DNA of 64,000 nucleotides from assembly GCA_043810165.1 (NCBI GenBank), contig JBDROJ010000019.1:17524-81523 (forward strand). The letters run 5' to 3'. Numbering within the stretch: position 1 is the stretch's first letter; each line of letters opens with the position of its first letter. The position numbers were made by a program, and so were the translations under genes. The notes under the pieces were generated by a model, which saw only the letters and a program-made list of their open reading frames with translations, did not search any database and was not told the origin of the DNA. Source of the stretch: a bacterium (lineage in GTDB: Bacteria; Patescibacteriota; Patescibacteriia; Magasanikbacterales; GWA2-37-8). Shown in pieces: positions 3,109 to 60,020 of this stretch.

Positions 3109-4668
3109 ATGCCTGACCAGAATACCACAGACAATAACGAAAACCTGGACGACCAACTTTTATATACACCACCTGATTCTGAAGACCAACAAGATCAAGA
3201 CACAGAAGATCAAAATCAAACCAGCTCCAAGCCTGGTAAAGTTAGTAAACTTCCAGACAAATCAGTAGATCTGGGTGATATAAGTTCCGGACAAAAAAAA
3301 CAAATTGATAGTGAAATTAAAATACCACTGGATGATTTAGAAATACAAGGGAAATTGCCGGCCAGGGCACCTGAAGAATTAGGTGAAGATGAACCACCAG
3401 ATGAGCCAGGAAAACAAAATCAAACAAAACCAGAACCCGAGCAAAACGAACAGGATCAAAATTTGCCCGCTAAAAAACCGGATCATAAAAAATCGGAAAA
3501 GCAAAAATCTGCAGATAAACCTTCAAAATCAGATCAATCCAAAGATCAACAACAAGAAGAAAAACCCGAGCAAGAGCCTGAAGAATCAGAACAAGACGAG
3601 TCAGAAGAGGAAGAAGGAGAAGAACAACCCGATGATGGAGAAGCCGAGCCAAGCGCAGAGCAAGGCCAAGGACAACCAGGAGAACAAAGCGAGCAAGGCC
3701 AAGAAGATGAGCAGGAACCCGAACAAGAAGAAGACGAAGAATCAGATCAAGACGAGCCAGAACAAGATCAGCCAACTGAAGAACCTCCAACCCAACCGGA
3801 TGAGCAACTGCCAAAACCACCAGAACCACATAAGCCAAAACCAAAATCCGAGCCAGAATCTGATTCAAAAAAAGAAGATTTAGAAGATAAAAAGAAAGAA
3901 TTGGAAGAAGATCTAGAAAAAGGAGACCAAGAAAAAAAAGAAGATCGTCAACAACCCGAAACCAAACCAGAAGAAAAATCCAAACCTGTTGAAAAAAAAG
4001 AACCACCCAAGGCCAAACCAAAAAAAAAGAAAAAGCCCAGTACCACCCCACAGCAACTAGATCCAAAACAGCAACAAGATGCACAAACTCAAATGCAACA
4101 ACAGCAACAAGCTGAACGAATGAAACAACAAAAAGAACAAGATGAGGATCAACAACAAAAATCTCAACAACCCGAGCAAGGAGAATATGAGGGACAAGAA
4201 TCCGAACAAGAAGAACAAGAGCAAGGAGAGCAAGAACAAGAAGGAGAGGCAGAAGCACAGGCTGAACAAGCCGAACAAGCTCAAAAATCACTTAAGGAAA
4301 TCAATCAACAAATATTAACAAAAGAAAAACAAATCAAACAGTTAAAAAAATCGATCGCACCAGCGCAAAGAAAAATATGGTTAAAAACATGGGCGCTGAG
4401 AGGTATGAAATTTTGGTATTTCCTAGTTATAATGGCTGAAATTATCCTTGCTATTTCAATTATAGGCTGGGCAGTAATAGAATACGTAGAAAAATACAGG
4501 CAAAAATTAAGTAAACAAATTAAAAAAATTAAAAAAGAATTAAAAGCAGAACAGAAAGCTATTCAAAACACAGTAGACAAGATAAAAGGCTTGCAAAGAG
4601 AACTAAATTTATTATACAGAGAAAAACTTGAAGCTCAAGGCATGTTGATTCCTAATGCACGCATTTAA
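3109..4668 (+). CDS. Highly acidic low-complexity (E/D/Q/K/P-rich) protein with a C-terminal transmembrane helix and coiled coil
   Basis: 519-aa ORF starting 10 nt after the clpC stop. It is extremely compositionally biased (EQ/ED repeats, a KKKKKKP stretch). The C-terminus WYFLVIMAEIILAISIIGWAV is hydrophobic and is followed by a coiled-coil segment. Confidence 0.6.
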   Translation: MPDQNTTDNNENLDDQLLYTPPDSEDQQDQDTEDQNQTSSKPGKVSKLPDKSVDLGDISSGQKKQIDSEIKIPLDDLEIQGKLPARAPEELGEDEPPDEPGKQNQTKPEPEQNEQDQNLPAKKPDHKKSEKQKSADKPSKSDQSKDQQQEEKPEQEPEESEQDESEEEEGEEQPDDGEAEPSAEQGQGQPGEQSEQGQEDEQEPEQEEDEESDQDEPEQDQPTEEPPTQPDEQLPKPPEPHKPKPKSEPESDSKKEDLEDKKKELEEDLEKGDQEKKEDRQQPETKPEEKSKPVEKKEPPKAKPKKKKKPSTTPQQLDPKQQQDAQTQMQQQQQAERMKQQKEQDEDQQQKSQQPEQGEYEGQESEQEEQEQGEQEQEGEAEAQAEQAEQAQKSLKEINQQILTKEKQIKQLKKSIAPAQRKIWLKTWALRGMKFWYFLVIMAEIILAISIIGWAVIEYVEKYRQKLSKQIKKIKKELKAEQKAIQNTVDKIKGLQRELNLLYREKLEAQGMLIPNARI

Positions 4669-6604: not shown

Positions 6605-8530
6605 ATGATATCAGTCAAAACTAAAATACTAATCTACCTAATATTTCTGGTATCTTTTTTTTCCTTTACACATCAATCGGTAGCAGCACAAGATTATTGT
6701 ATCGGCTGGTTGGCCAATAAAAATACCATCACATGCCTAGGAGTGTCTCATTACAAAGACTGCCAACCGGTCAGTAACTCCCTAACTAAATATAAAGCGA
6801 TTATTCCCTGGGGTTCAGAGTCACAGCCTACCCCTACTTTACCAAAAGACTTTCACCTACTAACCTCAAATATATATTCTGATGCAACAAAGTGTAATAC
6901 TGCTATTGCCAGTATTAATACAAAAGGATTTTGCGTTCACCACAAAAAAAATAGATGTATATCCAAACACATCGATAGTCCGGCTGACTGTTCCAAGTCA
7001 AATCCTACCAATTACAAAACATATAAAGAGTGCTACGATATACTAACAGGTAAAACAAAAACCACTTGCACCAAACACGCAGACTGTGTAGGTGGCCGCT
7101 TTTGTCTGTTATCTAAGTGTTACGCCATAACCGATTTACATATTCATACAGATAAAAAATGTAAGACGGATAAAGATTGTACTTTTGACAGTAAGCCGGG
7201 AGTCTGTAAATCAATGTATAGTCTTGGCTCTACCGCGTTTTCTGCTGGCAAGTCACCTAATGTGCCTGATGTATACCAAAGCTATTGTTTCCTTCTTGAC
7301 CCTGTTGTCACACCAATAAAAAAAACAATCACCTGGAAATCAAAAATACCTGACATTAGTATTAGAATACCAGGCCTAACCTTTGCTAGCATTCAAGACT
7401 CTATTACATTAGATGATGACGGACGCAAAATTATTAACATTCCTTGGGTCGGTCAATACATAACAGCAGTATATAAATTTGCCTTGGCCTTGGCCAGCGT
7501 AGTGGCTGTAGTTATGTTAATAATTCAAGGCGTAACAATCATGATGTCTGGTGGGGGTGAAGCCAAACAAGGTGCATATAAAAAAATACTACAAATATTT
7601 GTTGGCTTAGGCATAATGTGGGGATCTTATGCTATCTTGTATAATATCAATCCAGACTTGGTTAAATTCAAAGCTTTAGCTGTGACGATGGTTGAAAAAG
7701 AAGAAGCTAAATTTGAATCAGATTCAGTTAATCTTGGTACTGGGTCGGCAGCTGGCTCATCAGCCGCTGGCGCTTCAGGACCAAGTTACTCATCATCTAA
7801 AAATAAATACATAATACCATCTTACAAACAATGGAAGGGTGCTTGGGCCAAAGAAACTTTACCAATGAGCAGTAGCAAAATGAGCAGTAAAGGCTGTGTT
7901 TTTGTCTCTTATGCAATTGCCCTTCAAGCATTATACAATGATGGAACAAACCCATCTTCTTTAAAAAAATTATATACAGATGCTAAACAAGGCGATAATG
8001 TCAATATTGATCTTTACTACCAAAAAGATTTTATGAAAAATAGGTATCCGGGTTTAAAGGTTACTAGGATGAAGCGACCAGCAAAAATCAGCGACTTTAC
8101 CAGTGCCTTGGATCAAGGCAAACTCATAGCAGTCCGTGTTTATACAAGCGCCTTTACAGGCGGAGGACATCAATTTGTTATATATGATTATTATGAAAAA
8201 GGTGGTAAATATTATGTAAAAGTTTCAGACCCAGGCACGGGTGATAGTGCATATACTCGTTGCACCAAGGATATGAGTGGAAAATACGCTAAAGATGACG
8301 CAAAAATAAAAGACAAATTAAAAAAAGATAGAGATTTGAGTGAACAAGGTAAAACTAGTGGGTTCCTATGTGGTGATCCATATAAATTATCTCTTCAATC
8401 ACGTTGCCAGAATACTAATTGTGCTGGCCCAAAAGGAGTGGCTTTTGGACCAAATAATTATCCTTTGGAATACATAATGCGTGTAGGTGTAATGATGAAA
8501 GACTCTTTTGTATTTGAAAGAACTAACTGA
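6605..8530 (+). CDS. Secreted cysteine-rich protein, paralog A. It has an N-terminal signal peptide, Cys-rich repeats, a conserved double-TM hairpin, and a C-terminal papain-like (CHAP/C39-like) Cys...His domain
   Basis: Signal peptide ILIYLIFLVSFFSFTHQSVAA. Cys motifs such as TCTKHADCVGGRFCLLSKCY. The central ~130-aa block TITWKSKIPDISIRIPGLTFASIQ...VYKFALALASVVAVVMLIIQGVTIMMSGGGEAKQGAYKKILQIFVGLGIMWGSYAILYNINPDLVKFKALAVTMVEKEE is nearly identical to the one in the next gene. The C-terminus has GCVFVSYAIAL (candidate nucleophile Cys) and GGGHQFVIYDYY (candidate His). Confidence 0.55.
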   Translation: MISVKTKILIYLIFLVSFFSFTHQSVAAQDYCIGWLANKNTITCLGVSHYKDCQPVSNSLTKYKAIIPWGSESQPTPTLPKDFHLLTSNIYSDATKCNTAIASINTKGFCVHHKKNRCISKHIDSPADCSKSNPTNYKTYKECYDILTGKTKTTCTKHADCVGGRFCLLSKCYAITDLHIHTDKKCKTDKDCTFDSKPGVCKSMYSLGSTAFSAGKSPNVPDVYQSYCFLLDPVVTPIKKTITWKSKIPDISIRIPGLTFASIQDSITLDDDGRKIINIPWVGQYITAVYKFALALASVVAVVMLIIQGVTIMMSGGGEAKQGAYKKILQIFVGLGIMWGSYAILYNINPDLVKFKALAVTMVEKEEAKFESDSVNLGTGSAAGSSAAGASGPSYSSSKNKYIIPSYKQWKGAWAKETLPMSSSKMSSKGCVFVSYAIALQALYNDGTNPSSLKKLYTDAKQGDNVNIDLYYQKDFMKNRYPGLKVTRMKRPAKISDFTSALDQGKLIAVRVYTSAFTGGGHQFVIYDYYEKGGKYYVKVSDPGTGDSAYTRCTKDMSGKYAKDDAKIKDKLKKDRDLSEQGKTSGFLCGDPYKLSLQSRCQNTNCAGPKGVAFGPNNYPLEYIMRVGVMMKDSFVFERTN

Positions 8531-8569: not shown

Positions 8570-10567
8570 TTGTTTAAAAATTTAAAAATGAATTATAATT
8601 TAACAAAAAAACTACTTAATTTTACTTTCCTACTGTTTGTAATTGGTTTTGTTTTTTTATGGACGGGGCAAGTCTTTGCTACCGTTGGATACTGCGCAGT
8701 CTGGAATAGTGTTACAAATAAAAATGAATGTGTAAAAACAAGTGCTGTTAGCTGTGACTCCGCGACTGGCCAATATATACCTTTGCGTAGCCTGTTAATT
8801 GTGAACTTTAATGGCTATACAAAACAAGCTTGTGAAACCGTTCTCAAAAATGTAGAAAACCAAGGCTATTGCGTTTCCCAAGCAACGCAACAATTTAGTA
8901 GTCAATGTGTGTCTCGTTATTTTAATCCATATTTAAAATGTAAAAGCATCATTTACACAGTTTCATTTGGAGAATGTATGCAAGCCCTTAATAAAACTGC
9001 TAGTGCCTGCAAAAAACACAGTGATTGTGTAGGCTATGATAGCTACTGTTTAGGAGGTAAATGTGTTAACACAAAGACGGACTTACAATTTTCCCAAGAG
9101 ACTTGCCACAAAGATTCTGATTGTGTAAAAAATGGTAACCAAGGTATTTGTAACTACAAAGGAATCCCAGGTGGAAAATTTTTAGCAAAATACTACTGCT
9201 ATTATAAAAAAGGAGCTATTACCCCTCAACCAACAAAAACAATAACCTGGAAATCCAAAATACCTGAAATTAGTATCAGAATACCAGGCCTGACCTTTGC
9301 TAGTATTCAAAATTCTATTACTGTAGATACTGATGGACACAAAGTTATTAATATCCCCTGGATCGGACAGTATATAACAGCAGTATATAAATTTGCCTTG
9401 GCCTTGGTCAGTGTAGTGGCTGTGGTTATGTTAATAATTCAAGGTGTAACCATCATGATGTCTGGTGGAGGTGAAGCCAAACAAGGTGCATATAAAAAAA
9501 TACTACAAATATTTGTTGGTCTAGGCATAATGTGGGGCTCTTATGCAATGCTATATAATATTAATCCAGATTTGGTTAAATTTAAAGCTTTGGCTGTGAC
9601 GATGGTTGAAAAAGAAGAATCAACAGAGGAAGTGCCAAACTCGAATGATAATGTAAAATATAATTTAAAAGGAGAAAAAACTTTTGGGCCAATATTAGAA
9701 AAAGTTTCCAAAAAGGTAGGTATAGAATACTGTTTAGTAAGCGCACAGATATCAAGGGAATCTGGCTGGTCAACAGGCGCACATACCTCGTATGCTTTTG
9801 GTTTGGGGCAAGTGAGTTGGTATTATGCTACCACTTTATTATCTAGCCCAACCAAAAAAGCACAGATAGTATCTTACCATTCCAAAAACGACAGCAGTAC
9901 TTATCCGGTAGTACCTAGCGGGTTAACATATGATGCAGACGTTAAATCTCTACCAAAAGATCAAAGAGACGCACTAAAACAAAAAGTGGGTGATTGGCTA
10001 ATGGCTGATGCCGAAGCCAATATTATTATTACGACTTTATCTAAAAAATCAAGCCTCTCAAACACAAGTGCCTTTCATAAAGGCAATCCTATACTAGCCG
10101 CTGTAAATCATTATTATGGAATGGGTGCTTACTCTAAATTCTTAAAAAAAATGAAAGAATACAGGGCCAAAGGTTTAGTATCTGATACACAATGTACTGA
10201 AGCAGGATCTGTTAGCTTAACTGAATTTCTACAAGCTGCCAAAGATGGTAATACCACTAAACTGGAAGATCTTTATAATAAATCCTGCATACCACCCAAC
10301 AAATTCGCTTGGACTAATTATAAAACCAGCGGGGCCATGCCATATTTCTGTCCTCCAACCAAAAAAGGAGATACTATGCAATGTTGTACAAAAGAATCTT
10401 TATCAACTGGGACATGCATAATGCCAACACATACAGCCAATGGTAATAAAGGATTTTGTTTTGATGGTGTTAGAAAAGGTGAACCATGTAACTCAACTGG
10501 AGCTTTAAATTACGTGAAAAAGTACAGCACCTTCCTACAACAATGCTTAAACAGAAAAAAAACGTAA
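8570..10567 (+). CDS. Secreted cysteine-rich protein, paralog B. It has the same central double-TM hairpin as paralog A and a C-terminal lytic transglycosylase (SLT-like) domain
   Basis: Signal peptide FLLFVIGFVFLWTGQVFA. Cys motifs CKKHSDCVGYDSYCLGGKCV and CHKDSDCVKNGNQGICNY. The central block is ~95% identical to paralog A. The C-terminus IEYCLVSAQISRESGWSTGAHTSYAFGLGQV matches the SLT catalytic E-S...GLMQ pattern. Confidence 0.55.
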   Translation: MFKNLKMNYNLTKKLLNFTFLLFVIGFVFLWTGQVFATVGYCAVWNSVTNKNECVKTSAVSCDSATGQYIPLRSLLIVNFNGYTKQACETVLKNVENQGYCVSQATQQFSSQCVSRYFNPYLKCKSIIYTVSFGECMQALNKTASACKKHSDCVGYDSYCLGGKCVNTKTDLQFSQETCHKDSDCVKNGNQGICNYKGIPGGKFLAKYYCYYKKGAITPQPTKTITWKSKIPEISIRIPGLTFASIQNSITVDTDGHKVINIPWIGQYITAVYKFALALVSVVAVVMLIIQGVTIMMSGGGEAKQGAYKKILQIFVGLGIMWGSYAMLYNINPDLVKFKALAVTMVEKEESTEEVPNSNDNVKYNLKGEKTFGPILEKVSKKVGIEYCLVSAQISRESGWSTGAHTSYAFGLGQVSWYYATTLLSSPTKKAQIVSYHSKNDSSTYPVVPSGLTYDADVKSLPKDQRDALKQKVGDWLMADAEANIIITTLSKKSSLSNTSAFHKGNPILAAVNHYYGMGAYSKFLKKMKEYRAKGLVSDTQCTEAGSVSLTEFLQAAKDGNTTKLEDLYNKSCIPPNKFAWTNYKTSGAMPYFCPPTKKGDTMQCCTKESLSTGTCIMPTHTANGNKGFCFDGVRKGEPCNSTGALNYVKKYSTFLQQCLNRKKT

Positions 10568-11943: not shown

Positions 11944-12080
11944 TTTGTCATTGCGAGGAGGAGTGTAAGCGTTTCTGTCATTGCGAGCGTAAGCGAAGCA
12001 ATCCCGTTTTTACAGAATCAACGGGATTGCTTCGCTTACGCTCGCAATGACAGACATGCCTTGCTCGCAATGATAGAACA
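11944..12080. repeat. Nested palindromic repeat element, copy A (TGTCATTGCGAG family)
   Basis: tctgtcattgcgagcgtaagcgaagcaatcccgtt[loop]aacgggattgcttcgcttacgctcgcaatgacaga, flanked by extra tcattgcgagg / ctcgcaatga half-sites. Lies between radA and recG. Confidence 0.8.
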
Positions 12081-20558: not shown

Positions 20559-20567
20559 TCAGTTTGA

Positions 20568-20752
20568 TCTGTCATTGTGAGGAGTGTAGTGTTACTGTCA
20601 TTGCGAGCGTGGCATTTCTGTCATTGCGAGCGTGGCATTTCTGTCATTGCGAGCGTAAGCGAAGCAATCTCGTCATCATAGAACCAACGGGATTGCTTCG
20701 TCGCTCCACTCCTCGCAATGACAGTGAATCGCTCGCAATGACAAACAAAAAT
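20568..20752. repeat. Nested palindromic repeat element, copy B (three tandem left half-sites)
   Basis: gtcattgtgaggag...ctgtcattgcgagcgtggcatttctgtcattgcgagcgtggcatttctgtcattgcgagcgtaagcgaagcaatctcg...cgggattgcttcg...cctcgcaatgacag...gctcgcaatgacaaac. The 64-aa ORF 20564..20758 lies inside it and is spurious. Confidence 0.8.
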
Positions 20753-22216: not shown

Positions 22217-24418
22217 ATGTCCACATTAGTAATAGTAGAATCCCCGACCAAAGCAAAAACCATCTCTAAATTTTTAGGAAAAGACTTTATTGTAAAGTCT
22301 TCTTTTGGCCATCTACGCGATCTGCCAAAAAGCAAACTTGGGGTGGATGTGAAAAATGGTTTTAAACCTCAATATATAATCAGCCAAGGCAAAGGAAAAA
22401 CTGTTAAAGAACTTAAAGAAGCCTCTAAAAAAACCAAAGATATTCTATTCGCTACTGATGAAGATAGAGAAGGCGAAGCCATATCATATCATCTGGCTCA
22501 TATTCTGGGCATTAAACCTGAAAAGGCTCAAAGAATTGTATTTCATGAGATAACCAAGCATGCAATAACAGAGGCGCTGGAGCACCCGCGGGCTTTAGAT
22601 CTTAAATTATTTGATGCTCAACAAGCACGCCGAATCTTGGATAGACTGGTGGGTTATCAGCTATCACCTTTCTTATGGAAAAAAGTTGCACGAGGCTTAT
22701 CAGCTGGAAGAGTTCAATCTGTGGCTGTGCGACTTGTGGTTGAACGCGAACGTGAAATTGACGCATTCAAACCGCAAGAATATTGGACCGTGGAAGGATT
22801 ATTTTCCAAAGACAAAAAAGGTCAAATCACTGCCAAGTTAATTTCAATTAAAAGCAAAAAAGTTGGCAAGCTGAATATTAAAAACAAGAAACAAGTAGAC
22901 GAAATTTTATCCGATCTGGATGGCGCAAAATATGAGATCGCCAACGTGGAACAAAAAAAGAAAATACGCAATCCTTTGGCTCCTTTCACCACTTCCACTC
23001 TACAACAAGAAGCCAACCAGCGCTTGGGCTTTTCAGCTAAACAAACAATGCGCTTGGCTCAACAATTATATGAAGGAATTAGAATAACCGGCAATGGACA
23101 GGTGGGCTTAATCACATATATGAGAACCGATTCAGTAAACTTATCAGAAAAATTTTTGAATGAGTCTAGGGATTTTATTAAAAAAGAATATGGCAATCAA
23201 TATGCTTTGGACAAGCCAAGATTTTTTAAGAAAAAATCTAAAAATGCCCAAGAAGCGCATGAAGCAATTCGGCCAACTCACGCCGAATATTCCCCAGAAT
23301 CCATTGAAGAAAATCTTACCCCTCAACAATTCAAGCTATATAATCTGATCTGGAGAAAAGCCATGGCCAGCCAAATGTCTCCGGCTGAATTAAATGCCAC
23401 CATTATTGATATTTCAAGCAATAACGACTATATATTCCGAGCTAATGGACAGGTAATTGTGTTTGATGGGTTTTTAAAACTTTATCCTGATAAGACCAAA
23501 GAAAATTTATTGCCTCAGCTTAGTAGTGGAGATAAAATGGATTGTAGAGAAATAAAAACCGAACAGCACTTTACTGAACCGCCTGCCCGCTATTCAGACG
23601 CCACTTTGGTAAAGGCCTTGGAAGAATATGGCATCGGCCGGCCTTCAACTTATGCGCCCACCTTGGCCACCATAGAAAGCCGAAATTATGTGGAACGCAC
23701 CGAAAACAAGAAATTTAAACCAACTGATATAGCATATATTGTCAATGATCTATTAGTTGAACATTTTGACAAAATAGTTGACTATCAATTTACAGCTGAT
23801 ATGGAAAATTATCTGGATGATATAGCTACTGGAGAAAAACAATGGAAGGAAGTTCTCACCAATTTTTACGTACCATTTAAAGAAAATTTAGACAAAAAAG
23901 ACAAAGAATTAACCAAAAAAGAAATTACCGAAGAAAAAACTGATGAGATATGCGACAAATGTAAATCAGCCATGGTAATTAAGCACGGACGCTTTGGCAA
24001 ATTCTTGGCTTGTGGCAATTATCCTGAATGTAAAAATACCAAGAACATTACCAAAGAAGGAAAAATCGAAGATAACGAACCTGAATTATCCGATGAAAAA
24101 TGCGAAAAATGTGGATCGCCAATGGCCAAAAAACACGGTCGCTACGGCGCTTTCTTGGGCTGTTCAAATTATCCAGATTGCAAAAACATTAAAAATATTG
24201 AAAACAAAATCGGGGTTAAATGTCCAGAATGTGACAAGGGTGATATTGTTGAAAGAAAAAGCAAACGTGGCAAAACTTTTTATGGCTGTAATAGTTATCC
24301 AAAATGCAAATTTGCTTTGTGGAGCAAGCCAACTGGCGAACAATGCAAAAAATGCAAAAGCTTAATGATCTACGGAGCTAAAGATACTACTAAGTGCAGT
24401 AATAAGGAATGTAAATAA
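22217..24418 (+). CDS. topA: DNA topoisomerase I with C-terminal zinc-ribbon repeats
   Basis: TOPRIM N-terminus (VIVESPTKAKTI, DEDREGE), a YMRTDS active-site Tyr region, and four C4 zinc ribbons (CDKCKS...CGNYPECK etc.). Confidence 0.9.
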   Translation: MSTLVIVESPTKAKTISKFLGKDFIVKSSFGHLRDLPKSKLGVDVKNGFKPQYIISQGKGKTVKELKEASKKTKDILFATDEDREGEAISYHLAHILGIKPEKAQRIVFHEITKHAITEALEHPRALDLKLFDAQQARRILDRLVGYQLSPFLWKKVARGLSAGRVQSVAVRLVVEREREIDAFKPQEYWTVEGLFSKDKKGQITAKLISIKSKKVGKLNIKNKKQVDEILSDLDGAKYEIANVEQKKKIRNPLAPFTTSTLQQEANQRLGFSAKQTMRLAQQLYEGIRITGNGQVGLITYMRTDSVNLSEKFLNESRDFIKKEYGNQYALDKPRFFKKKSKNAQEAHEAIRPTHAEYSPESIEENLTPQQFKLYNLIWRKAMASQMSPAELNATIIDISSNNDYIFRANGQVIVFDGFLKLYPDKTKENLLPQLSSGDKMDCREIKTEQHFTEPPARYSDATLVKALEEYGIGRPSTYAPTLATIESRNYVERTENKKFKPTDIAYIVNDLLVEHFDKIVDYQFTADMENYLDDIATGEKQWKEVLTNFYVPFKENLDKKDKELTKKEITEEKTDEICDKCKSAMVIKHGRFGKFLACGNYPECKNTKNITKEGKIEDNEPELSDEKCEKCGSPMAKKHGRYGAFLGCSNYPDCKNIKNIENKIGVKCPECDKGDIVERKSKRGKTFYGCNSYPKCKFALWSKPTGEQCKKCKSLMIYGAKDTTKCSNKECK

Positions 24419-24440
24419 ATAACAATTTCTTCTTAAATAA

Positions 24441-24474
24441 AAAACTACCATTTTAATCAGGTAGTTTTTTATTA
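24441..24474 (+). terminator. Rho-independent terminator of topA
   Basis: aaaaactacc-attttaatca-ggtagtttttt hairpin followed by a T-run. Confidence 0.6.
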
Positions 24475-24611
24475 TTGTGTCCCCCGACCAGAATAATCAG
24501 GGAATATCTTCTTGGTACCAACAAGAATGAGCCCGCTTTTTGCTTTGACGGTAGCGAGCAGGAACCGTGATGTCGTTAAAAACGACTGGTTGGAAACGTG
24601 AAGTAGAGAAT

Positions 24612-24815
24612 CTAGTTGGCGCTTACCAACGAAAGGATCTTCTTGAGGGTGATGACCCGACCCAACACAGAGACATACACTCCCTTGGTCATGGACGCAC
24701 CCACACGTACTTGCGGAGCAACTTGCACTGATCCGCCCACGCCTTTGCGACCGATATTCAGGCGTTTTCCTTTGCGCTGAATGGACTTGCCGAACTTGAA
24801 CCAGCCACTAAGCAT
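24612..24815 (-). CDS. Small basic protein (67 aa), translationally coupled to the upstream zinc-ribbon gene. It has a weak bL27-like flavour
   Basis: ATG at 24815 lies 5 nt after the upstream TAG, with an AGGAAG SD overlapping the end of the upstream gene. The sequence is MLSGWFKFGKSIQRKGKRLNIGRKGVGGSVQVAPQVRVGASMTKGVYVSVLGRV.... GC-rich codon usage. Confidence 0.4.
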   Translation of the reverse strand: MLSGWFKFGKSIQRKGKRLNIGRKGVGGSVQVAPQVRVGASMTKGVYVSVLGRVITLKKILSLVSAN

Positions 24816-24819
24816 AGCA

Positions 24820-25496
24820 CTACTTCCTGCTACTGGACTTGGTGCGACCACGGGAAGACGGCTTCTTCGGCTCCTTGGGTAGAGCAACCACGTCGTCGCC
24901 ATCCTCGTCGCCCTCCATGTAATGCTTGGCGTAATGCTTGGCCGTCTCACAGAACATCTCCTCGATGGGCTCGGCCAGGGCGTCCATCATCTTGCCCATG
25001 TTGAAGTCCAACGAGTGCTTGGCACCGGCCAGGAGCTGATCCTGCAGTGGAAGCTTCTTCTCGCTGTGCATGGACCATGCCGTACCCGCGCCAAGGATGA
25101 GCACGTTGGCCAAGGTCCGCTCCACCGCTCGCAAGGTCTGGCTGGAGTCGATGAACTCCTCGGGGTAAGGCAGGTTGTACTTCTTACACACTGCCCGCAG
25201 ACCGCGCACGAACGGGCTGGTGACCACACGGTTACCCAGAGCCATCTTGCCACCCTTGGCAAACGAACCGCCGATGATCTCGCCCATCTTTCTCAGGAAC
25301 CTGGGTTTCTCGTTCTCTTCCATCTTCTTCTTCTCGTTTTTAGGGTTGATATCTTCGTCGTACTCACTGTCTTCAGAGTCAAACCAGCCAATCTCTTCAC
25401 CACACAACAGGCACTTCTCAGCGAATTCCTCCACACTTGCTTCACAGGCCGGACAAACCCAATCAGATATTTCTTCTGTTCCTGTGTTAACTTCCA
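24820..25496 (-). CDS. Zinc-ribbon protein of unknown function, encoded in a GC-rich island
   Basis: A perfect SD (AGGAGG, reverse complement of 25501-25509) lies 6 nt upstream of the ATG at 25496. The N-terminus is MEVNTGTEEISDWVCPACEASVEEFAEKCLLCGEE (a C4 ribbon). GC content is ~53% against ~33% in the surroundings. I recognise no family motif. Confidence 0.55.
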
Positions 25497-25696
25497 TACT
25501 GACCTCCTGTTTTTTCTCTTGTTCTAAATGATTGTTCACTATCTGGAGTTGGTTTTCAACGAACTAATTCATCACTTGATCAATCCTTAATTATATATTA
25601 AATAACCCATTCTGTCAATACTTTCCACAGAATTACCTATTTATATAGCTTTATGTAAAATTAGCAAAATATTATATGTCATCTGTGTCGAAATAC

Positions 25697-25725
25697 TTGA
25701 CAAATTCATAATTATGCTGTATATT
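25697..25725 (+). promoter_or_regulatory. Sigma70-like promoter (TTGACA-17nt-TATATT) for the TrmB regulator gene
   Basis: TTGACA at 25697-25702 and TATATT at 25720-25725, ~35 nt upstream of the 25759 ATG. Confidence 0.5.
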
Positions 25726-25758: not shown

Positions 25759-26490
25759 ATGAACAACATTAGCCAAATTCTAAAAAACCTAGGTTTAAAT
25801 AGCAAAGAAACCAAAATATACCTGGCTCTTTTAGAGCTAGGTACAGGCACAGTTCAACAAGTGGCCCGAGAAGCTAAAATCAAAAGAACTAATGTTTATG
25901 ACCACCTAGGCGACATGAAAGCCATGGGCTTGCTTAGTGAAATTAAACATGATAAAAAAACTTTACTTATCCCAGAAAATCCCCAGATTTTAAAACAAAA
26001 AGCATGTGAAAACCTAGAAAACATTAACCATGCCATGCCAGAACTGCTTGGCATCTTTAATACTCCTGGCTCTAAACCAACCATTAAATTTTATGAAGGC
26101 AAACAAGGTTTAAAGCAGGCTTTTGAACGAATATTACAAGAAGTAGACAGTGGTATTTATGCCATAACAGATGCAGAACAAATGATGGCCACAATGGATG
26201 AAAAATACATGTGGAATTGGGCTGTTAGAAGAGCAAACAAAGACATAACTTACCAAGCTATTATAAAAGAGGGTAAAAAAGGAAAAATGGCCAAAAAATT
26301 AGACAAAAAACAAAAAAGAGAAACTAAACTAGTAAAGGATGTTAAATTCTCTACTGAAATACTGATATTTGATAATAAGGTAGCCATGATGAGTTACAAA
26401 AAACCTTACAGTGCCACTATTATCGAAGATATCGCCGTTGCCGACACCATGAGAGCAATGTGGAAGGGCTGGTGGAATAGTTTGAAATAA
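25759..26490 (+). CDS. TrmB-family transcriptional regulator
   Basis: N-terminal wHTH ILKNLGLNSKETKIYLALLELGTGTVQQVAREAKIKRTNVYDHL is typical of TrmB. A paralog sits at 54916..55671. Confidence 0.65.
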   Translation: MNNISQILKNLGLNSKETKIYLALLELGTGTVQQVAREAKIKRTNVYDHLGDMKAMGLLSEIKHDKKTLLIPENPQILKQKACENLENINHAMPELLGIFNTPGSKPTIKFYEGKQGLKQAFERILQEVDSGIYAITDAEQMMATMDEKYMWNWAVRRANKDITYQAIIKEGKKGKMAKKLDKKQKRETKLVKDVKFSTEILIFDNKVAMMSYKKPYSATIIEDIAVADTMRAMWKGWWNSLK

Positions 26491-26531: not shown

Positions 26532-28043
26532 ATGCGTCAAAAAATTGACATACAAAAAAATCCGCATCCAAGAGAACTCTTTAAAGAGCTCAAAACCTAT
26601 TGTCATAGTGACGATATTGTTCTTGTCAGGCTTGCTTATGATTTCGCAGAAAAAGCACATCGAGGACAGGTACGCAAATCAGGCCAGCCATATATTAGCC
26701 ACCCGCTGGCAACAGCCCTTCTATTGTCACAAATAAAAATTGACATCAATATTATCATTGCCGCTCTTTTACATGACGTGCCAGAAGATACGCCAGTAAC
26801 TCTTGAGGAAGTAGAAAAAAACTTTGGCGCAGATGTATCCTCTATGGTTAAGGGAATTACCAAATTGGGGCATCTTAAATATCGCGGAGTAGAAAGATAC
26901 ATAGAAAACTTGCGCAAAATGTTTATAGCAATGGCCGAAGATATTCGTGTCATGCTTATTAAATTTGCTGATAGAATTCATAATTTATCTACTTTGGAAA
27001 ACCTTTCTCCTAAAAAAAGATACCGCATTGCTTTAGAAAGTTTGGAAATTTACGCCCCCATAGCCAATCGACTCGGCATCGGTGAATTCAAACATATGTT
27101 GGAAGACTATGCCTTCCCCCATATATACCCCAAGGAATATGAAAAAACCTTGCAAATACGGCAAAATTACTTGACCGGCCAAGAAATTCATCTAGAAAAT
27201 ATCATGGAAATAATCAGACAAGAGTTAAATAAAGCCGATATAAAATGCATAGACGTGCATGGTCGAGAAAAAACCTTGTATAGCCTTTACAAAAAAATAC
27301 AGCGCAAAGGCTGGGACGAATTAGATAAAATATATGATATTGTTGCCTTAAGAATAATAGTACCGAATATTGGGGATTGCTATGCCACTCTAGGGATAAT
27401 ACACAAACTATGGAGGCCACTAAAAGGCAGAATTAAAGATTATATTTCTCAACCCAAACCAAACGGATACAAATCTATTCATACCACGGTATTCTGCGAG
27501 AATGGCAAAATAGTAGAATTTCAAATTCGCGATCAGCAAATGCATGGAGAAGCTGAATTTGGCGTGGCCTCGCACTGGCACTATGACGAAAACGGGGCTA
27601 GTTTACCAAACAAAGATATTTACTGGGCCAAAGAATTAGCTGAAGTCCAAAAAAGTATCTTATCAAAACTTTCTGACCTGGATGATTTAAAAGTTGATTT
27701 CTTTAAAAACCGTATTTTTGTATTCACACCGCGCGGAGATGTTATTGATCTGCCTGAAGATGCTACTCCAGTGGACTTTGCTTATCATATCCATACTGAT
27801 ATAGGACATCATTGCAACGGAGCCAAAATAAATGATCAAATGGTAAGCTTAGACACTCTTTTAAATAGTGGCGACGTAGTAGAAATTACAGTGGACAAAA
27901 ATCGCAAGGGCCCGAGCCCGGATTGGTTGAAATCCGTAAAAACTCATGTGGCTCGAAGTAGAATAAAAAACAAATTAAAAGAACAAAAGGGACATTGGCT
28001 GATACAAAAAATTATAAATAAGAAAAACAAAAACTCCGACTGA
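26532..28043 (+). CDS. rel: RelA/SpoT-family (p)ppGpp synthetase/hydrolase, short form (HD + synthetase + TGS; no ACT/CTD)
   Basis: HD motif HDVPEDT, synthetase region (RIKDYISQPKPNGYKSIHT), and a TGS-like VFTPRGDVIDLPEDATPVDFAYHIHTDIGHHCNGAKIN. Only 503 aa. Confidence 0.8.
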   Translation: MRQKIDIQKNPHPRELFKELKTYCHSDDIVLVRLAYDFAEKAHRGQVRKSGQPYISHPLATALLLSQIKIDINIIIAALLHDVPEDTPVTLEEVEKNFGADVSSMVKGITKLGHLKYRGVERYIENLRKMFIAMAEDIRVMLIKFADRIHNLSTLENLSPKKRYRIALESLEIYAPIANRLGIGEFKHMLEDYAFPHIYPKEYEKTLQIRQNYLTGQEIHLENIMEIIRQELNKADIKCIDVHGREKTLYSLYKKIQRKGWDELDKIYDIVALRIIVPNIGDCYATLGIIHKLWRPLKGRIKDYISQPKPNGYKSIHTTVFCENGKIVEFQIRDQQMHGEAEFGVASHWHYDENGASLPNKDIYWAKELAEVQKSILSKLSDLDDLKVDFFKNRIFVFTPRGDVIDLPEDATPVDFAYHIHTDIGHHCNGAKINDQMVSLDTLLNSGDVVEITVDKNRKGPSPDWLKSVKTHVARSRIKNKLKEQKGHWLIQKIINKKNKNSD

Positions 28044-28950: not shown

Positions 28951-29112
28951 AATTAATATTGTCATCGCCGACAAAGCATGCCTGTCATCGCGAGCGTTGT
29001 TTTCTTGTCATTGCGAGCGGTTCACTGTCATTGCGAGGAGCAAAGCGACGAAGCAATCTCGTGTTTCTATAGTGACGGGATTGCTTCGCTTACGCTCGCA
29101 ATGACAGACACA
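28951..29112. repeat. Nested palindromic repeat element, copy C
   Basis: cctgtcatcgcgagcg...cttgtcattgcgagcgg...ctgtcattgcgaggagcaaagcgacgaagcaatctcg[loop]gacgggattgcttcgcttacgctcgcaatgacag. Lies between parB and parA. Confidence 0.8.
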
Positions 29113-29154
29113 CCAAACTCGAAATAAATTTCTCAACCTTCTTTGTTCTATATT

Positions 29155-31030: not shown

Positions 31031-32323
31031 TTATTTATCTTTTTCAACTTTGGAAAAACCTACAAAATTAGCGGATTCAGTTGAACGATCCGCGTTAATC
31101 TCTTGTCCTTCTATTCTTATTACCCTATCTTTGAGATTACCACGGTTGTCCAAATCAGTAGAATCGGCTCTACTTAATTGATTAGCCCTGGTGTCTAGGC
31201 CTTTGTCTTCAAGACCCCCACTAATCGGATCTGTATCCATAACACCAACATCAACTGTGTCATCTTCAAATTCTACGGGTTGAGTACTTCTCTGAACTTC
31301 TTGTTTCTTCGCTAATTCTCTCATACGATCTTCAATAGCCATGGCTTCATCTTCATCAGGGTTAGACTGTTTATCTATTTCTTTTTCAAATGGAGTTCGG
31401 TCATCTGGTAAAGGCCTCATACGATATGTTTTTCCATCATGTTCTAAATATCCTGGCTTTACATCAGTAATACCATCTGGTTGTGCGGGCATTTTATATT
31501 GCACGGGAGAGTGTTCAGGTAGGTCATCCGGTAATTCAGGGGCAGATTTACTTAAGCCTGCAACAAATACGAGAACGGCCGGCAAAAGAGCTACTCCAGA
31601 TATCACTTTATTTTTTCTGATAAAATCAAGCAAAGTCTGGCTGTCCATTTCTTCCAGATTTTCAATTTTTTGAACTCCAAATGATTTGGCCAGTAATTCT
31701 AAACTTTTTCTTGAAGTTTCCTTTTTGTATTTGAGAGATTTAAGCTCATCTAATATTTTAGCTCTCTCTTTCCTGGCAAAAAATACTCTAAACATGCCGA
31801 GTTTTTTCAATTCGGATGTTTTATTTGCTATCTGATTTTGGAATGTTTTAACCTCTTGGCTGATAGTAGACCAACTTTCTAAATTATCTTGAATTTTTTT
31901 AACCTGTTCTGTATATTCCTTTGTATATCTTTCATCATCTTCTGACATAACTACCTTGTTAACAGAACTTACTCCATGTTTTTTTTCATATTCCCCTCTG
32001 ATATATCCTGCACTTTCTTTGAACTGTTGTTTAATCTCCATATCTCTAATTTGCTCTGGCGAAAGCGTTGGGGGATATAAAGGCGGAGGAATCTCTTGCA
32101 ATAGGCTGGAATCTAATTCCTCAACTTCTTCTAGATCGCGGTCTTTTAAAGCAATAACGCCCTCTTCTGGTTCAACTATTTTAAGAGGATATGTTTTTTC
32201 TTGAGCTTGCGCAGCTTTTTTCTTTGCTTCTTCAGCTGCCAACCACACTATTTCTTTTTTGTTGTTTTCTTTATTCCCTAATTCTTGGGCTAAAGAATCA
32301 CTATTTACATGTTCAAAACTCAT
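31031..32323 (-). CDS. Hypothetical membrane-associated coiled-coil protein
   Basis: 430 aa, charged with a coiled-coil N-terminal half. A single TM (ISGVALLPAVLVFVAGL) sits mid-protein and the C-terminal region is acidic. Confidence 0.4.
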   Translation of the reverse strand: MSFEHVNSDSLAQELGNKENNKKEIVWLAAEEAKKKAAQAQEKTYPLKIVEPEEGVIALKDRDLEEVEELDSSLLQEIPPPLYPPTLSPEQIRDMEIKQQFKESAGYIRGEYEKKHGVSSVNKVVMSEDDERYTKEYTEQVKKIQDNLESWSTISQEVKTFQNQIANKTSELKKLGMFRVFFARKERAKILDELKSLKYKKETSRKSLELLAKSFGVQKIENLEEMDSQTLLDFIRKNKVISGVALLPAVLVFVAGLSKSAPELPDDLPEHSPVQYKMPAQPDGITDVKPGYLEHDGKTYRMRPLPDDRTPFEKEIDKQSNPDEDEAMAIEDRMRELAKKQEVQRSTQPVEFEDDTVDVGVMDTDPISGGLEDKGLDTRANQLSRADSTDLDNRGNLKDRVIRIEGQEINADRSTESANFVGFSKVEKDK

Positions 32324-32534
32324 ATTTTTAAAAATTATATTAAAATTACCTAAAAAGGTTGGATTTTGAAAAAAATTGGCTAATTTTAGCTAAATACATT
32401 TATATTATACCATAAAAAACCGGTTTTGTCAATGCCTTTGGCTAAAAATACAAAAACAGCCCGGTTTTAACCAAAGCTGCATGCTTTGATCCACACCTCA
32501 TATAGTGTCCACTTTTTGGGGTACAGTTCAATTG

Positions 32535-41963: not shown

Positions 41964-42245
41964 AAAAGTAATTAATAAAACATCGTGGTATTTATCGCGA
42001 TGTTTTTGATTTTAAAAAAATATTTTTGTCACAACAAACTAAAACTGTGCATAACTTTGCTTGACGCTATTCTCTTTTTGTTAAAAAAGTTTTATAATAT
42101 AGGCAGGTCGAAAAGATTTTTTACATACATGCTTGTCATGTAAAAAGTTTACCAAACAAAAATTTTTCGCCGCGGCGGGAAAAAATTTTTTTATATTCTA
42201 ATAAGTCCTTCTTCTAAAAGGACAGATGGAAGGGAGGTGTATACT

Positions 42246-42392
42246 ATGCCAGCTAAAAAGAAAGTAGCTAAGAAAAAAGTTGCTAAAAAGAAAGTAGCTA
42301 AGAAAAAAGTTGCTAAAAAGAAAGTAGCTAAGAAAAAAGTTGCTAAAAAGAAAGTAGCTAAGAAAAAAGTTGCTAAAAAGAAGAAGAAATAA
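42246..42392 (+). CDS. 48-aa lysine-rich tandem-repeat peptide MPA(KKKVA)9KKKKK, histone-H1-tail-like / nucleoid-associated candidate
   Basis: ATG at 42246 is preceded by GGAAGGGAGG 7 nt upstream. Four copies of a 30-nt unit GCTAAAAAGAAAGTAGCTAAGAAAAAAGTT follow. The TAA stop is at 42390 and is followed by a strong terminator. Not in the ORF track because it is under 60 aa. Confidence 0.6.
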   Translation: MPAKKKVAKKKVAKKKVAKKKVAKKKVAKKKVAKKKVAKKKVAKKKKK

Positions 42393-42405
42393 GCTAATAT
42401 AAGCT

Positions 42406-44462: not shown

Positions 44463-45395
44463 TTATGAATAAGGTTTAGCTAGTTCAACTAAATGTTCGT
44501 ATGTATCGGCTATCATTACTCCTACTTCTGATAAAGCCTTTTCCTTTTCAGCCGCACCTTTACCCCGTTCTACAATCGCACCAGCATGACCGACATTCAT
44601 TCCCTCGGGTAAAACACCCGCAAACTTACCACCTATATATATGGCCAAAGGCTTGGTAAATTCTTGTTTATTTATCAAATCAACAATTTCAAACTCATAA
44701 CTACCACCGTGCTCTCCAAAAATCACTACCACTTTAGTTTGTTCATCTTTTTCAAACATTTTTAACAAGTCAGCGTAAGTAGTACCCATTAATAGATCTC
44801 CACCCACATGAACCACTGTACTTTGGCCTAGACCTGCTTTGCGAATCTGCCAAGCCAATTCATTAGTCATACCGCCGGAACGAGAAATTGCACCCACACT
44901 GCCTGGTTGGAATATTTCTTCAACCAACGGGCCACCCACTACCCCAACTCTGGCTTTGCCCGCTGAAATATACCCTAATGAACTTGGCCCTATAATACGA
45001 ATATCCTTTTCTTTGGCAGCTGCCAGACAATAAGCTGTGTCTTGAATAGGCACTCTTTCCGTCATGATATTTATAACAGAAATGTCATTTTCAATTGCTT
45101 CCATAATTGCCTGCTTGGTGGCAAAAGGAGGCACATAAATGGCGCTGGTGATATTGTGACGAGATTGCTTCGCTTCGCCTGCCTGCCGGACAGGCAGGCT
45201 CGCAATGACAGATAATACTTCGGCCACGGTATCAAAAACCGGCACGCCAAAAACTTGTTCACCGGCTTTGCCAGGGCGCACGCCACCTACCAATTTGGTG
45301 CCATAGTCAAGCATGGCTTGAGTGGCTCGCTGGCCTTCTTTGCCTGTTATACCTTGGATCAAAACTTTTGTATCTTGATTTATCAAAATACTCAT
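44463..45395 (-). CDS. Succinyl-CoA synthetase alpha-like subunit (CoA-binding; citryl-CoA synthetase small-subunit candidate) carrying an in-frame repeat-derived insertion
   Basis: MSILINQDTKVLIQGITGKEG...phospho-His loop MNVGHAGAIV. It aligns with SucD, except for an extra ~17 aa (SLPVRQAGEAKQSRHNI) encoded by a copy of the TGTCATTGCGAGC...GAAGCAATCTCG repeat. Confidence 0.7.
   Translation of the reverse strand: MSILINQDTKVLIQGITGKEGQRATQAMLDYGTKLVGGVRPGKAGEQVFGVPVFDTVAEVLSVIASLPVRQAGEAKQSRHNITSAIYVPPFATKQAIMEAIENDISVINIMTERVPIQDTAYCLAAAKEKDIRIIGPSSLGYISAGKARVGVVGGPLVEEIFQPGSVGAISRSGGMTNELAWQIRKAGLGQSTVVHVGGDLLMGTTYADLLKMFEKDEQTKVVVIFGEHGGSYEFEIVDLINKQEFTKPLAIYIGGKFAGVLPEGMNVGHAGAIVERGKGAAEKEKALSEVGVMIADTYEHLVELAKPYS
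45160..45215. repeat. Repeat element copy D, inserted in-frame inside the SCS-alpha-like CDS
   Basis: Minus-strand sense reads tctgtcattgcgagc-cctgcctgtccggcaggcagg-cgaagcgaagcaatctcgtcac. The family flanks are present around a perfect 8-bp-stem GC hairpin. Local GC is much higher than the surrounding gene. Confidence 0.7.
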
Positions 45396-48465: not shown

Positions 48466-48477
48466 AAATTTTTGTTT

Positions 48478-48640
48478 TGTCATTGTGAGGAGCGTAGCGT
48501 TGCTGACATTGCGAGGAGCGTAGCGACGAAGCAATCTCGCCTAGTTATATTGTAACGAGATTGCTTCGCTTACGCTCGCAATGGCAGGAAGACTTGGCTC
48601 GCAATGACAGCAACGCTACGCTCCTCGCAATAACAGATTA
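48478..48640. repeat. Nested palindromic repeat element, copy E
   Basis: ttgtcattgtgaggagcgtagcgttgctgacattgcgaggagcgtagcgacgaagcaatctcg[loop]cgagattgcttcgcttacgctcgcaatggcag...gctcgcaatgacagcaacgctacgctcctcgcaataacag. Confidence 0.8.
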
Positions 48641-49294
48641 TAAACCTAAATATTTAGAAATCTTTTTATCTTCCAAAGAATCAACCACCAAATCAGCCTG
48701 ACTAAAATCTCCAAAACTCCATCTCTTATCAGGCACAGCAATACAAGTCATTCCAGCTCGCTTTGCTGACACCACCCCATTTTCTGCGTCTTCAAAAACT
48801 AAACAGTCTTCAGGTTTCACTTGCAGACGCTCGGCTGTATACAGATAAATCCTTGGATCAGGCTTGCCCACAAAATTTACATGATCAGCTGATACTAATT
48901 CGTCAAAATACTCATGCCAACCAAAACGACCCACAACTAATTTGACACTGTCCAACGGTGCTCCTGAAGCGATTGCTTGCTTTATTTTCTCTTTCTTAAT
49001 ATTTCTAATTAAGTCAACTACTCCAGGCATAATTTTTGTTTTTTTCTGATAAAGTTCTTCTATCCTCTTATTTCTAAAGACAAATAAATCATCAATCGGT
49101 TGATCTATATTAAATTTTTCTTTCAACCAGGCCATACCTTCTTCTACACTCCTACCGGTTAAATATTTTATGGTATCTTCGGTTAACTCAAAGTCTATCT
49201 GTGAAAACAACTCCTTATCCAATTCAATCCAATGGATCATGCTGTCCACCAGCAAACCATCCATGTCATAAATTACCGCTTTAAATTTATTCAT
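48638..49294 (-). CDS. HAD-superfamily hydrolase (subfamily IA, beta-phosphoglucomutase-like)
   Basis: KAVIYDMDGLLVDS motif I with downstream motifs II/III. Confidence 0.65.
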   Translation of the reverse strand: MNKFKAVIYDMDGLLVDSMIHWIELDKELFSQIDFELTEDTIKYLTGRSVEEGMAWLKEKFNIDQPIDDLFVFRNKRIEELYQKKTKIMPGVVDLIRNIKKEKIKQAIASGAPLDSVKLVVGRFGWHEYFDELVSADHVNFVGKPDPRIYLYTAERLQVKPEDCLVFEDAENGVVSAKRAGMTCIAVPDKRWSFGDFSQADLVVDSLEDKKISKYLGL

Positions 49295-54696: not shown

Positions 54697-54726
54697 ATTA
54701 AATTTTTTAGATTAGTCTCGTGGATA

Positions 54727-54882
54727 ATGGGCGTTTCTGTCATTGCTAGCGTAGCGCTATTGTCATTGCGAGGAGCGGAGCGACGAAGCAATCTCGCTGC
54801 CCTAGAACCAACGAGATTGCTTCGCTTACGCTCGCAATGACAGAAACGCTATACAGGCTCGCAATGACAGATTTGACTAATT
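54727..54882. repeat. Nested palindromic repeat element, copy F
   Basis: gtttctgtcattgctagcgtagcgctattgtcattgcgaggagcggagcgacgaagcaatctcg[loop]cgagattgcttcgcttacgctcgcaatgacagaaacgct...gctcgcaatgacag. Confidence 0.8.
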
Positions 54883-58876: not shown

Positions 58877-59212
58877 CTTGTTTTTTCCAGGGTATTGTTT
58901 TTAAGCACTGCTTAGTGTTTTTGTCGTATGCTCGGCTTATTAGTACGCCTCGGCTTAACTCTTTACAGAGCTTAGACCTGGCGCCTATCAACCTCGTAGT
59001 CTACAAGGAGCCTATAACGAATATTAATCTTGAGGACGGCTTCACGCTTAGATGCTTTCAGCGTTTATCCGCGCCAAACGTAGCTACCCAGCAATGCCCT
59101 TGGTAGGACAACTGGTACACTAGAGGTTCGTCCACTCCGGTCCTCTCGTACTAGGAGCAGGTCCTCTCAATATTCAACGCCCACAGCGGATAGGAGACCG
59201 AACTGTCTCACG

Positions 59213-59974: not shown

Positions 59975-60007
<33 letters not shown>

Positions 60008-60020
60008 TGGCGAACAGCCA

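Follow-up and report, generated by a model that had tools for sequence, protein, structure and literature searches.

Does the short GC-rich islet that lies directly behind topA in an AT-rich Patescibacteria contig consist of real foreign genes, and if so, how did they come to stand there? The question was raised by a first-pass annotation of 64,000 nt of contig JBDROJ010000019.1 (the whole stretch analysed, referred to here as the window), which described an island at positions 24478-25560 with two minus-strand genes and named as candidates a recent horizontal acquisition (phage or plasmid cargo, or a toxin-antitoxin-like pair) and a chimeric assembly join. The reading favored here, to which we assign a probability of roughly 0.75, is that the islet was acquired horizontally and forms a genuine operon of two orphan genes, in which open reading frame 1 (ORF1), encoding a zinc-ribbon protein, is followed by ORF2, encoding a small basic protein, with a proposed pairing of the two products and a proposed regulation of their expression. 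Horizontal acquisition, the first of the earlier candidates, is upheld because the islet has a foreign composition, because ORF1 carries a Shine-Dalgarno (SD) site of a type that is foreign to the host, and because the junction between topA and relA is empty in five relatives.

Composition, coding capacity and expression signals of the islet

The segment 24478-25560 contains 52.8% GC, compared to 37.9% for the remaining window and 35.3% and 33.0% for the adjoining 1 kb on each side. The contrast of ~53% with a host value of ~33% that had been given before is therefore right for the islet, whereas the host stands at ~38% over the window and at 33-35% only in the immediate flanks. When GC content was followed in sliding windows of 300 nt, the islet reached 0.61, the highest value in the 64 kb (mean 0.382, standard deviation (sd) 0.050) and above that of the 23S rRNA, and a maximum-likelihood two-state segmentation placed it at 24529-25452 (55.3% versus 34.6% GC). 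Its left edge is abrupt and follows immediately on the topA terminator hairpin (24436-24473), as the first-pass annotation had observed. The right edge is a gradient within ORF1, along which the GC content of third codon positions (GC3) rises from 0.25 in codons 1-20 to 0.5-0.6 up to codon 60 and to 0.75-1.0 in codons 60-200. No other segment of the window matches this composition; the palindromic repeat elements, which had been thought to share it, reach just 47-52% GC, and the 23S rRNA gene, insertion included (58920-62616), has 46%, with 300-nt peaks of 0.54. An origin of the islet from rRNA or from the repeat elements was rejected, as it has no similarity to the remaining window.

Both of the minus-strand genes with foreign, GC3-rich codon usage that had been described are present. 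ORF1 (24820..25497, minus strand) runs from an ATG at 25497 to a TAG at 24820-24822, so that the gene stands as called earlier except for its start, which had been placed one base off at 25496; the product has 225 amino acids (aa), a mass of 25.2 kDa, an isoelectric point (pI) of 5.2 and a net charge of ~ -9. ORF2 (24612..24815, minus strand) has its ATG at 24815, 4 nt past the TAG of ORF1 and with an AGGAAG upstream, and its stop codon at 24612-24614, and it encodes 67 aa (7.2 kDa, pI 12.0, net charge +12.5). The GC contents of the first, second and third codon positions (GC1, GC2 and GC3) are 0.55, 0.39 and 0.72 in ORF1 and 0.54, 0.43 and 0.64 in ORF2, and GC3 is 0.27-0.37 in five neighbouring host genes. 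Taken over the longest ORF (24823-25539), the GC3 of ORF1 is 0.71, which exceeds the mean of the remaining ORFs (0.319 +/- 0.046) by ~8.5 sd, and the sole other ORF flagged at 3 sd is a spurious one inside the 23S rRNA gene. Three-frame translation led to the rejection of two further possibilities, that ORF2 extends ORF1 through a frameshift and that it is a longer gene cut short, and the 3′ untranslated tail of the islet (24478..24611, minus strand) was found to have stops in all three frames and no ORF that extends ORF2. This tail has 46% GC and two or three ordinary hairpins (fold z = -1.8), and its only Rfam match, to poplar-1, is a chance one of 19 bits, where the gathering score is 110.

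In AT-rich genomes, GC islands are usually structured RNAs, and the other GC-rich segments of this window are in fact RNA genes or structured repeats, which would make the two ORFs spurious by-products of a non-coding RNA. No Rfam family matched the islet at the gathering threshold, with a single chance match of 19 bits appearing at E <= 1. Folding was also close to that of shuffled controls: z-scores on the transcribed minus strand ranged from -1.1 to +1.9, and besides one plus-strand window at -2.3, only the window that contains the terminator folds significantly. Coding is further indicated by a strong three-base periodicity and by the stop-free stretch of 239 codons at ORF1, a length rare at this composition: at least 225 codons were reached in only 1.15% of dinucleotide-preserving shuffles. 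This leaves the structured-RNA explanation effectively refuted and its probability close to nil.

The perfect AGGAGG that had been noticed before the first gene was found at 25503-25508 (minus strand), 5 nt ahead of the ATG of ORF1. In 50 host genes, the 20 nt ahead of the start never contain AGGAGG, and only two of the genes have AGGAG at the start; the hexamer is not enriched in the window (15 occurrences, 18.9 expected), and the arrangement AGGAGG-5 nt-ATG is unique in it. Since this site is not of the host type, the 5′ end of ORF1 probably arrived with the remainder of the gene, which argues against a native N-terminus fused to foreign DNA, an idea prompted by the GC3 gradient at this end. 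Many host ATGs (e.g., of the genes at 26532, 29922, 32323 and 14146) stand only 8-15 nt past a TATAAT-like box, and host mRNAs may accordingly have no leader or a very short one.

Upstream of ORF1, in host-like DNA of 28% GC, lies a promoter (25590..25618, minus strand) with a perfect sigma-70 consensus, TTGACA-N17-TATAAT (12/12), which would give a leader of ~85 nt. Two such perfect promoters occur in the window, where 0.04 are expected; the other one (32404-32432, minus strand) is upstream of the gene 31034-32323. Divergent from the ORF1 promoter is that of the neighbouring TrmB-like gene (25697..25725, plus strand; TTGACA-N17-TATATT, 11/12), and the -35 boxes of both are inside an imperfect 17-nt inverted repeat. 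At the other end, topA on the plus strand and the ORF1-ORF2 operon on the minus strand have in common a bidirectional intrinsic terminator (24436..24473), formed by a perfect 14-bp inverted repeat (AATAAAAAACTACC / GGTAGTTTTTTATT) with a 10-nt loop and T-runs on both strands. The hairpin forms in the minus-strand fold, and it was skipped by a simple terminator scanner because its stem has <3 G-C pairs. Between the two genes, the 4-nt gap and the AGGAAG upstream of ORF2 make translational coupling plausible; the geometry on which the term "classic translational coupling" had been based is thus confirmed, while the coupling itself is what we infer from it.

These signals also bear on the possibility that a GC-rich fragment was acquired and persists as a functionless relic, its ORFs being in decay or open by chance. 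Stop codons are scarce in GC-rich DNA: 1.15% of the shuffles do reach 225 codons, and an antisense ORF of 201 aa on the plus strand is open as well. A relic would further be in keeping with the 135-nt tail of intermediate GC content past ORF2, with the low AlphaFold confidence for both products (see below) and with the lack of homologues by which purifying selection could be measured. However, both ORFs show GC3 > GC1 > GC2 in exactly the called frame, whereas the pattern is inverted in the antisense ORF (GC1 0.71, GC3 0.55), as expected for a shadow frame, and the latter was rejected as a real gene on these grounds. ORF1 has an intact zinc ribbon with RanBP-type spacing that matches real ribbons at E = 1.6e-5, an AGGAGG at the optimal distance from its ATG (the chance of which is ~1e-3, given 15 sites in 128 kb of strand), a perfect promoter and a tidy stop-start junction with ORF2. 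A relic is therefore considered unlikely.

The junction between topA and relA in this lineage

By its topA protein, the host is a Magasanikbacteria-like member of the Patescibacteria, with nearest relatives at 72-76% topA identity. In five related contigs (L002, L003, L004, L005 and L011), topA is followed by relA/spoT, parB and parA in this order, the latter two on the minus strand, and folC precedes topA in L003, L004 and L005. These five relatives are distant, their topA being 72-75% identical. Their relA orthologues are 74-81% identical to that of the window, and the topA-relA spacers in four of them measure only 106-250 nt and all contain a hairpin resembling a terminator as well as a TATAAT box. 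In the window, the left anchor of this conserved synteny is topA (22217..24418, plus strand) and the right anchor is a relA/spoT-family gene (26532..28043, plus strand) with its own promoter, TTGATT..TATACT, directly past the stop codon of the TrmB-like gene. Between them are three extra genes, ORF2 and ORF1 on the minus strand and the TrmB-like gene on the plus strand, none of which is present at that junction in the five relatives.

The third of these genes (25759..26490, plus strand) encodes a TrmB-family helix-turn-helix (HTH) regulator of 243 aa, recognized by PF01978 at residues 8-66 with 48.9 bits (cut-off 25.6). It scored far under the cut-offs of the NCBIfam TrmB and TrmBL1 equivalogs, so that it is not the sugar-sensing TrmB proper. 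Its GC3 of 0.33 is host-like and it has no Shine-Dalgarno site. A relative with 50% identity lies on a different low-GC contig, where its chromosomal surroundings are unrelated and no neighbour is GC-rich, and a viral origin of the gene was rejected, there being no PHROG match and no relatives in viral contigs. As a foreign composition is confined to ORF1 and ORF2, more than one event has probably taken place at this locus.

The surroundings of topA vary in other members of the lineage as well. Four contigs (L001, L006, L009 and L010) have different genes past topA, which marks a synteny breakpoint. Minus-strand ORFs with raised GC3 and no Pfam match occur just upstream of topA in L002 (515-2762; 0.51-0.58 versus 0.22-0.28) and L005 (2585-3058; 0.40 versus 0.19-0.25), and another GC-elevated one without a Pfam match is located ~5 kb downstream of topA in L006 (13142-13561, minus strand; 0.68 versus ~0.45). 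No similarity was detected among these ORFs or between them and ORF1 or ORF2. GC-elevated orphans thus seem to collect around topA in this lineage, and its flanks look insertion-prone. The topA-relA spacer of L002 (5281-5526) holds yet another small insertion at this junction, a GC-rich, near-perfect palindromic element of ~160 nt (TTTGTCATCTCGACCGGAGTCCCGAC ... GGTCGAGATGACA). There is no tRNA that could have served as a target, the nearest one being >7 kb from the islet.

The same context speaks to the possibility of a chimera, i.e., that the metagenome assembler joined ~1 kb from a high-GC organism into the Patescibacteria contig. That the sequence comes from a metagenome-assembled genome, the one holding MFH1291819-21 with locus tags ABIH87_01310-01315, that the left boundary is abrupt and that none of the relatives has the islet would all be explained in this way. 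A chimera, however, requires two independent mis-joins within one intergenic gap of a conserved gene order, and both flanks continue in that synteny. Neither ORF is cut at a junction; the frame of ORF1 passes smoothly through the GC gradient into AT-rich DNA that holds the Shine-Dalgarno site and the perfect promoter, the latter divergent from the promoter of the neighbour, and the operon ends at a bidirectional terminator. In addition, a common high-GC contaminant should have homologues and none were found, so that the ORFs are not ordinary genes of a contaminant. Mainly because complete genes are enclosed by host signals, the chimeric join that had been listed as a candidate is considered very unlikely.

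The two proteins and their proposed origin

In ORF1, the cysteine spacing of the N-terminal C4 zinc ribbon reported earlier is present (CPAC-x10-CLLC within W-x-C-x2-C-x10-C-x2-C, residues 13-32). The ribbon is followed by an acidic linker (residues 37-66), an orphan domain of ~130 residues (~67-195), which is helical according to a low-confidence prediction, and an acidic-then-basic tail. A word-indexed search of 5.8 billion clusters returned only self-matches, and an exhaustive phmmer scan of 1.84 billion representatives found, beyond the protein itself, only matches to the ribbon (E = 1.6e-5 and 4.9e-4), the better of which, P0003, consists of four RanBP-type zinc-ribbon repeats (PF00641). 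PF00641 itself was not reported among the Pfam matches at E <= 1, where only sub-threshold Rubredoxin, DZR and Zn_Ribbon_1 appeared. Nothing above threshold was found in PHROGs or NCBIfam, PADLOC yielded only a stretch of LmuB over the zinc-ribbon residues 3-60 (E = 2e-4), and the PDB sequences gave only marginal matches to rubredoxin knuckles. A paralogue elsewhere in the window was rejected, the lone match being the generic zinc ribbon of RadA at 10586.

The product of ORF2 had been credited with a faint similarity to ribosomal protein bL27. This was not borne out, as Ribosomal_L27 did not appear at E <= 1 in Pfam or NCBIfam, and no match was obtained at E <= 10 among PDB sequences. The word-indexed search of the 5.8 billion clusters returned only the protein itself, and PHROGs and PADLOC gave nothing above threshold. 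Instead, its N-terminal half (FKFGKSI..RLNIGRKGVGGSV) is DUF4236-like: Pfam DUF4236 (PF14020) matched residues 6-50 along positions 1-45 of a profile of 55, at 19.0 bits and E = 0.002, which is below the cut-off of 27, and NCBIfam PHA_gran_rgn matched about as weakly and likewise below threshold. For a closer comparison, an alignment of 13 diverse N-termini from genuine DUF4236 genes of plasmids and phages was used as the profile. With hhalign, ORF2 aligned to it over 26 columns, all in the N-terminal half, with a probability of 35% and P = 4e-4. From the N-terminal motif of the family, MGFRFRKSI..PG.R.NLSK.G.S.S.G, ORF2 keeps K7, N18 and S27 and lacks R6, P13 and G29. A hidden Markov model (HMM) built from the same alignment gave ORF2 the top score of the window's 618 six-frame segments, and among 2,000 composition-preserving shuffles of ORF2, one scored higher and two more about equal. 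The C-terminal half of the domain, with its invariant G41, G50 and G52 (G-T..T.GIPGTGLSY), was left unaligned by hhalign; residues 32-67 of ORF2 (VAPQVRVGASMTKGVYVSVLGRVITLKK...) are without the PGTG motif, and the C-terminus is predicted to form an amphipathic helix. With the score below the Pfam threshold and the C-terminal half absent, ORF2 is therefore not counted as a member of DUF4236, and the resemblance is to the N-terminal half only.

The resemblance invites a more specific version of the horizontal acquisition, in which the islet is the remnant of a lysogeny or moron module of an unrecognised Patescibacteria mobile element, with an HTH regulator divergent from a DUF4236-like operon. 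Genuine DUF4236 genes abound on plasmids (2,740 records) and in phages (50 records), the latter with short stand-alone members, and in two temperate phages the gene is located between repressor and integrase (Roseburia phage Shimadzu, L020 1501-2088; Faecalibacterium phage Epona, L022 1501-2028); the regulator adjoining the islet is divergent too. Apart from the sub-threshold score, the missing C-terminal motif and the shuffles that equal or exceed ORF2, the absence of PHROG matches and of viral-contig relatives for ORF1, ORF2 and the regulator counts against such a module, as does the absence of an integrase or any other phage gene nearby, and the regulator is host-composed, with its 50%-identical relative in an unrelated chromosomal context. 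A remnant of this kind thus appears improbable. As a side observation, DUF4236 genes were also seen in large conjugative IncHI2-type plasmids (L012/L016 2001-3224), where they lie within the tellurite-resistance (ter) cluster, flanked by an HpcH-family aldolase gene and terW.

Searches for the donor at the DNA level were equally empty. Neither tblastn nor blastn against phages and plasmids found anything beyond chance, and scans with back-translated patterns gave none for ORF1 in viral, metagenome and genome contigs and none for ORF2 in viral contigs. Two candidates were discarded as chance matches, a 32-nt blastn match in Novosphingobium and tblastn matches of ORF2 in Azospirillum, which are inside an autotransporter. 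The phage or plasmid cargo suggested by the first-pass annotation thus found no support in these searches, nor in PHROGs. That no homologues were found would be expected if the genes stem from a mobile gene pool that has been sampled poorly. In Patescibacteria, genomic islands and transferred genes are documented to be common, and the transfers are reported to come mostly from other Patescibacteria, in addition to diverse other donors (PMC12455944).

On the reading of an acquired operon, the donor would have had a GC content of ~60% or more and would have used Shine-Dalgarno initiation, and the two genes would have landed in an AT-rich host that is essentially without Shine-Dalgarno sites, at an insertion-prone spot bounded by the terminator of topA and the promoter of relA/spoT. 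There, transcription would start at the perfect sigma-70 promoter, proceed through the ~85-nt leader and end at the terminator common with topA, and translation of ORF2 would be coupled to that of ORF1. The acidic ORF1 product (~ -9) might bind or neutralise the basic ORF2 product (~ +12.5), in the manner of toxin-antitoxin-like or cargo-chaperone pairs, and the divergent TrmB-family regulator may restrain the strong ORF1 promoter.

Several points weigh against this reading. No full-length relative of either ORF turned up among ~15 billion proteins, nor in the DNA sets from phages, plasmids, viruses, genomes and metagenomes. The check for flanking direct repeats or attachment (att) sites, recommended earlier, found no att-like direct repeats, nor are there terminal inverted repeats, and no integrase or transposase is near the islet, whose neighbours are folC, topA, the TrmB-like gene, relA and parB. 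The closest available relative has a topA identity of only 76%, which makes the event undatable and leaves no presence/absence comparison within the species. The TrmB-like gene is missing from the junction of the relatives and yet is host-composed, which implies at least two events or a mixed module. The pairing of the products, the coupling and the regulation by the TrmB-like protein are proposed from geometry and charge. Single-sequence AlphaFold2 models had mean confidence scores (pLDDT) of 39.6 for ORF1 and 62.6 for ORF2, too poor for a fold search, and the 16S rRNA, which bears on whether an imported Shine-Dalgarno site works in this host, is outside the window.

The islet represents a clean, well-bounded case of foreign DNA that has become fixed in the streamlined genome of a member of the Patescibacteria, complete with expression signals. 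The kind of event is ordinary and well known, and here it carries three independent foreign marks, namely the GC content, the GC3 and a Shine-Dalgarno site where the host makes hardly any use of such sites. The two proteins enlarge the pool of true orphans, and the identity of the donor might hint at the organism that hosts this presumed episymbiont or exchanges DNA with it. A bolder proposal, which we regard as quite unlikely, is that these are the first sampled members of a fast-evolving two-protein module that circulates among Patescibacteria or comes from their higher-GC hosts or their viruses, in which a zinc-ribbon protein and a basic DUF4236-like protein under a TrmB-type repressor would serve in conflicts between host and symbiont or against phages, and such cassettes would land repeatedly beside topA. 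The extreme GC content and the donor-type Shine-Dalgarno site would then point to the physical partner organism of the episymbiont.

Other features of the window and comparison with known systems

Further features of the window were recorded along the way. The 23S rRNA gene (58920-62616, minus strand) is interrupted near its 3′ end; in a focused Rfam search, positions 2494-2925 of the large-subunit model were spread over 58920-60100, a surplus of ~750 nt. The interruption concerns especially 59221-59630, where a weak match to a group I intron (59221-59358; 24 bits, E = 0.0013, below the gathering score) is followed by an ORF of 89 aa (59364-59630). A 29-nt inverted repeat (58903-58931 / 62614-62642) looks like the processing stem of the 23S rRNA. 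The GC-rich (47-52%) palindromic repeats are intergenic and are found at 11967-12078, 20567-20749, 28957-29130, 45138-45175, 48469-48644 and 54712-54866. Their units, TGTCATTGCGAGCG and AAGCGAAGCAATC..CGGGATTGCTTCGCTT, resemble repetitive extragenic palindromes or miniature inverted-repeat transposable elements; they are unrelated to the islet and create spurious ORFs, such as that at 28978-29127. Repeats were also seen within coding sequences. A tandem 15-nt repeat of ~10 units (42222-42401) in a small plus-strand ORF encodes (A-K-K-K-V)n, a Lys/Ala-rich tail like that of histone H1; degenerate, acidic Glu/Gln-rich repeats occur at 3542-4289 within the gene 3109-4665, whose GC1 of 0.64 is unusually high; and a 300-nt direct duplicate with 90% identity (7318-7617 / 9232-9531) is located in the large, adjacent tandem paralogues 6605-8527 and 8570-10564.

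Compared with known systems, the two proteins each resemble an established family in one segment. Residues 13-32 of ORF1 have the W-x-C-x2-C-x10-C-x2-C pattern of RanBP2-type and C4 zinc ribbons (PF00641, rubredoxin-like knuckles), although another residue takes the place of the Asn that is conserved in RanBP2 fingers, and the other 190 residues are without relatives. Residues 6-31 of ORF2 align with the N-terminal half of DUF4236 (F-x-F-x-K-S-I ... R-L-N-[IL]-x-x-x-G-[VI]-x-x-S-[VI]), a family typical of mobile elements, and its 67 aa are comparable to the 63-109 aa of the stand-alone phage members; the conserved G..GIPGTGLSY half of the family is lacking in ORF2, and its 19 bits, against a cut-off of 27, are partly driven by composition.

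As a pair, the genes resemble type II toxin-antitoxin systems in that they are small and adjacent with a nearly abutting stop and start, encode one acidic and one very basic product, and occupy a foreign accessory location with a transcription regulator nearby. In contrast to these systems, Pfam, NCBIfam and PADLOC detected no toxin, antitoxin or defence domain, so that the toxin-antitoxin-like pair proposed earlier was not substantiated, and the upstream ORF1, with its 225 aa, exceeds typical antitoxins in size and, apart from the zinc ribbon, shows no DNA-binding fold that could be recognised.

The orphan-gene islets known from Patescibacteria (PMC12455944) and from prokaryotes generally also offer a comparison. 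From these, the present islet differs by its very small size (1.1 kb, two genes), by having no mobility gene, tRNA target or flanking repeats, and by its extreme contrast with the host, with a GC3 of 0.72 versus 0.32 and a donor-type Shine-Dalgarno site in a host that is poor in them. It shares with them an atypical GC content and codon usage, genes with no assigned function from a novel gene pool and a location at a synteny breakpoint or variable spot, and like them it is missing where relatives have the syntenic site.

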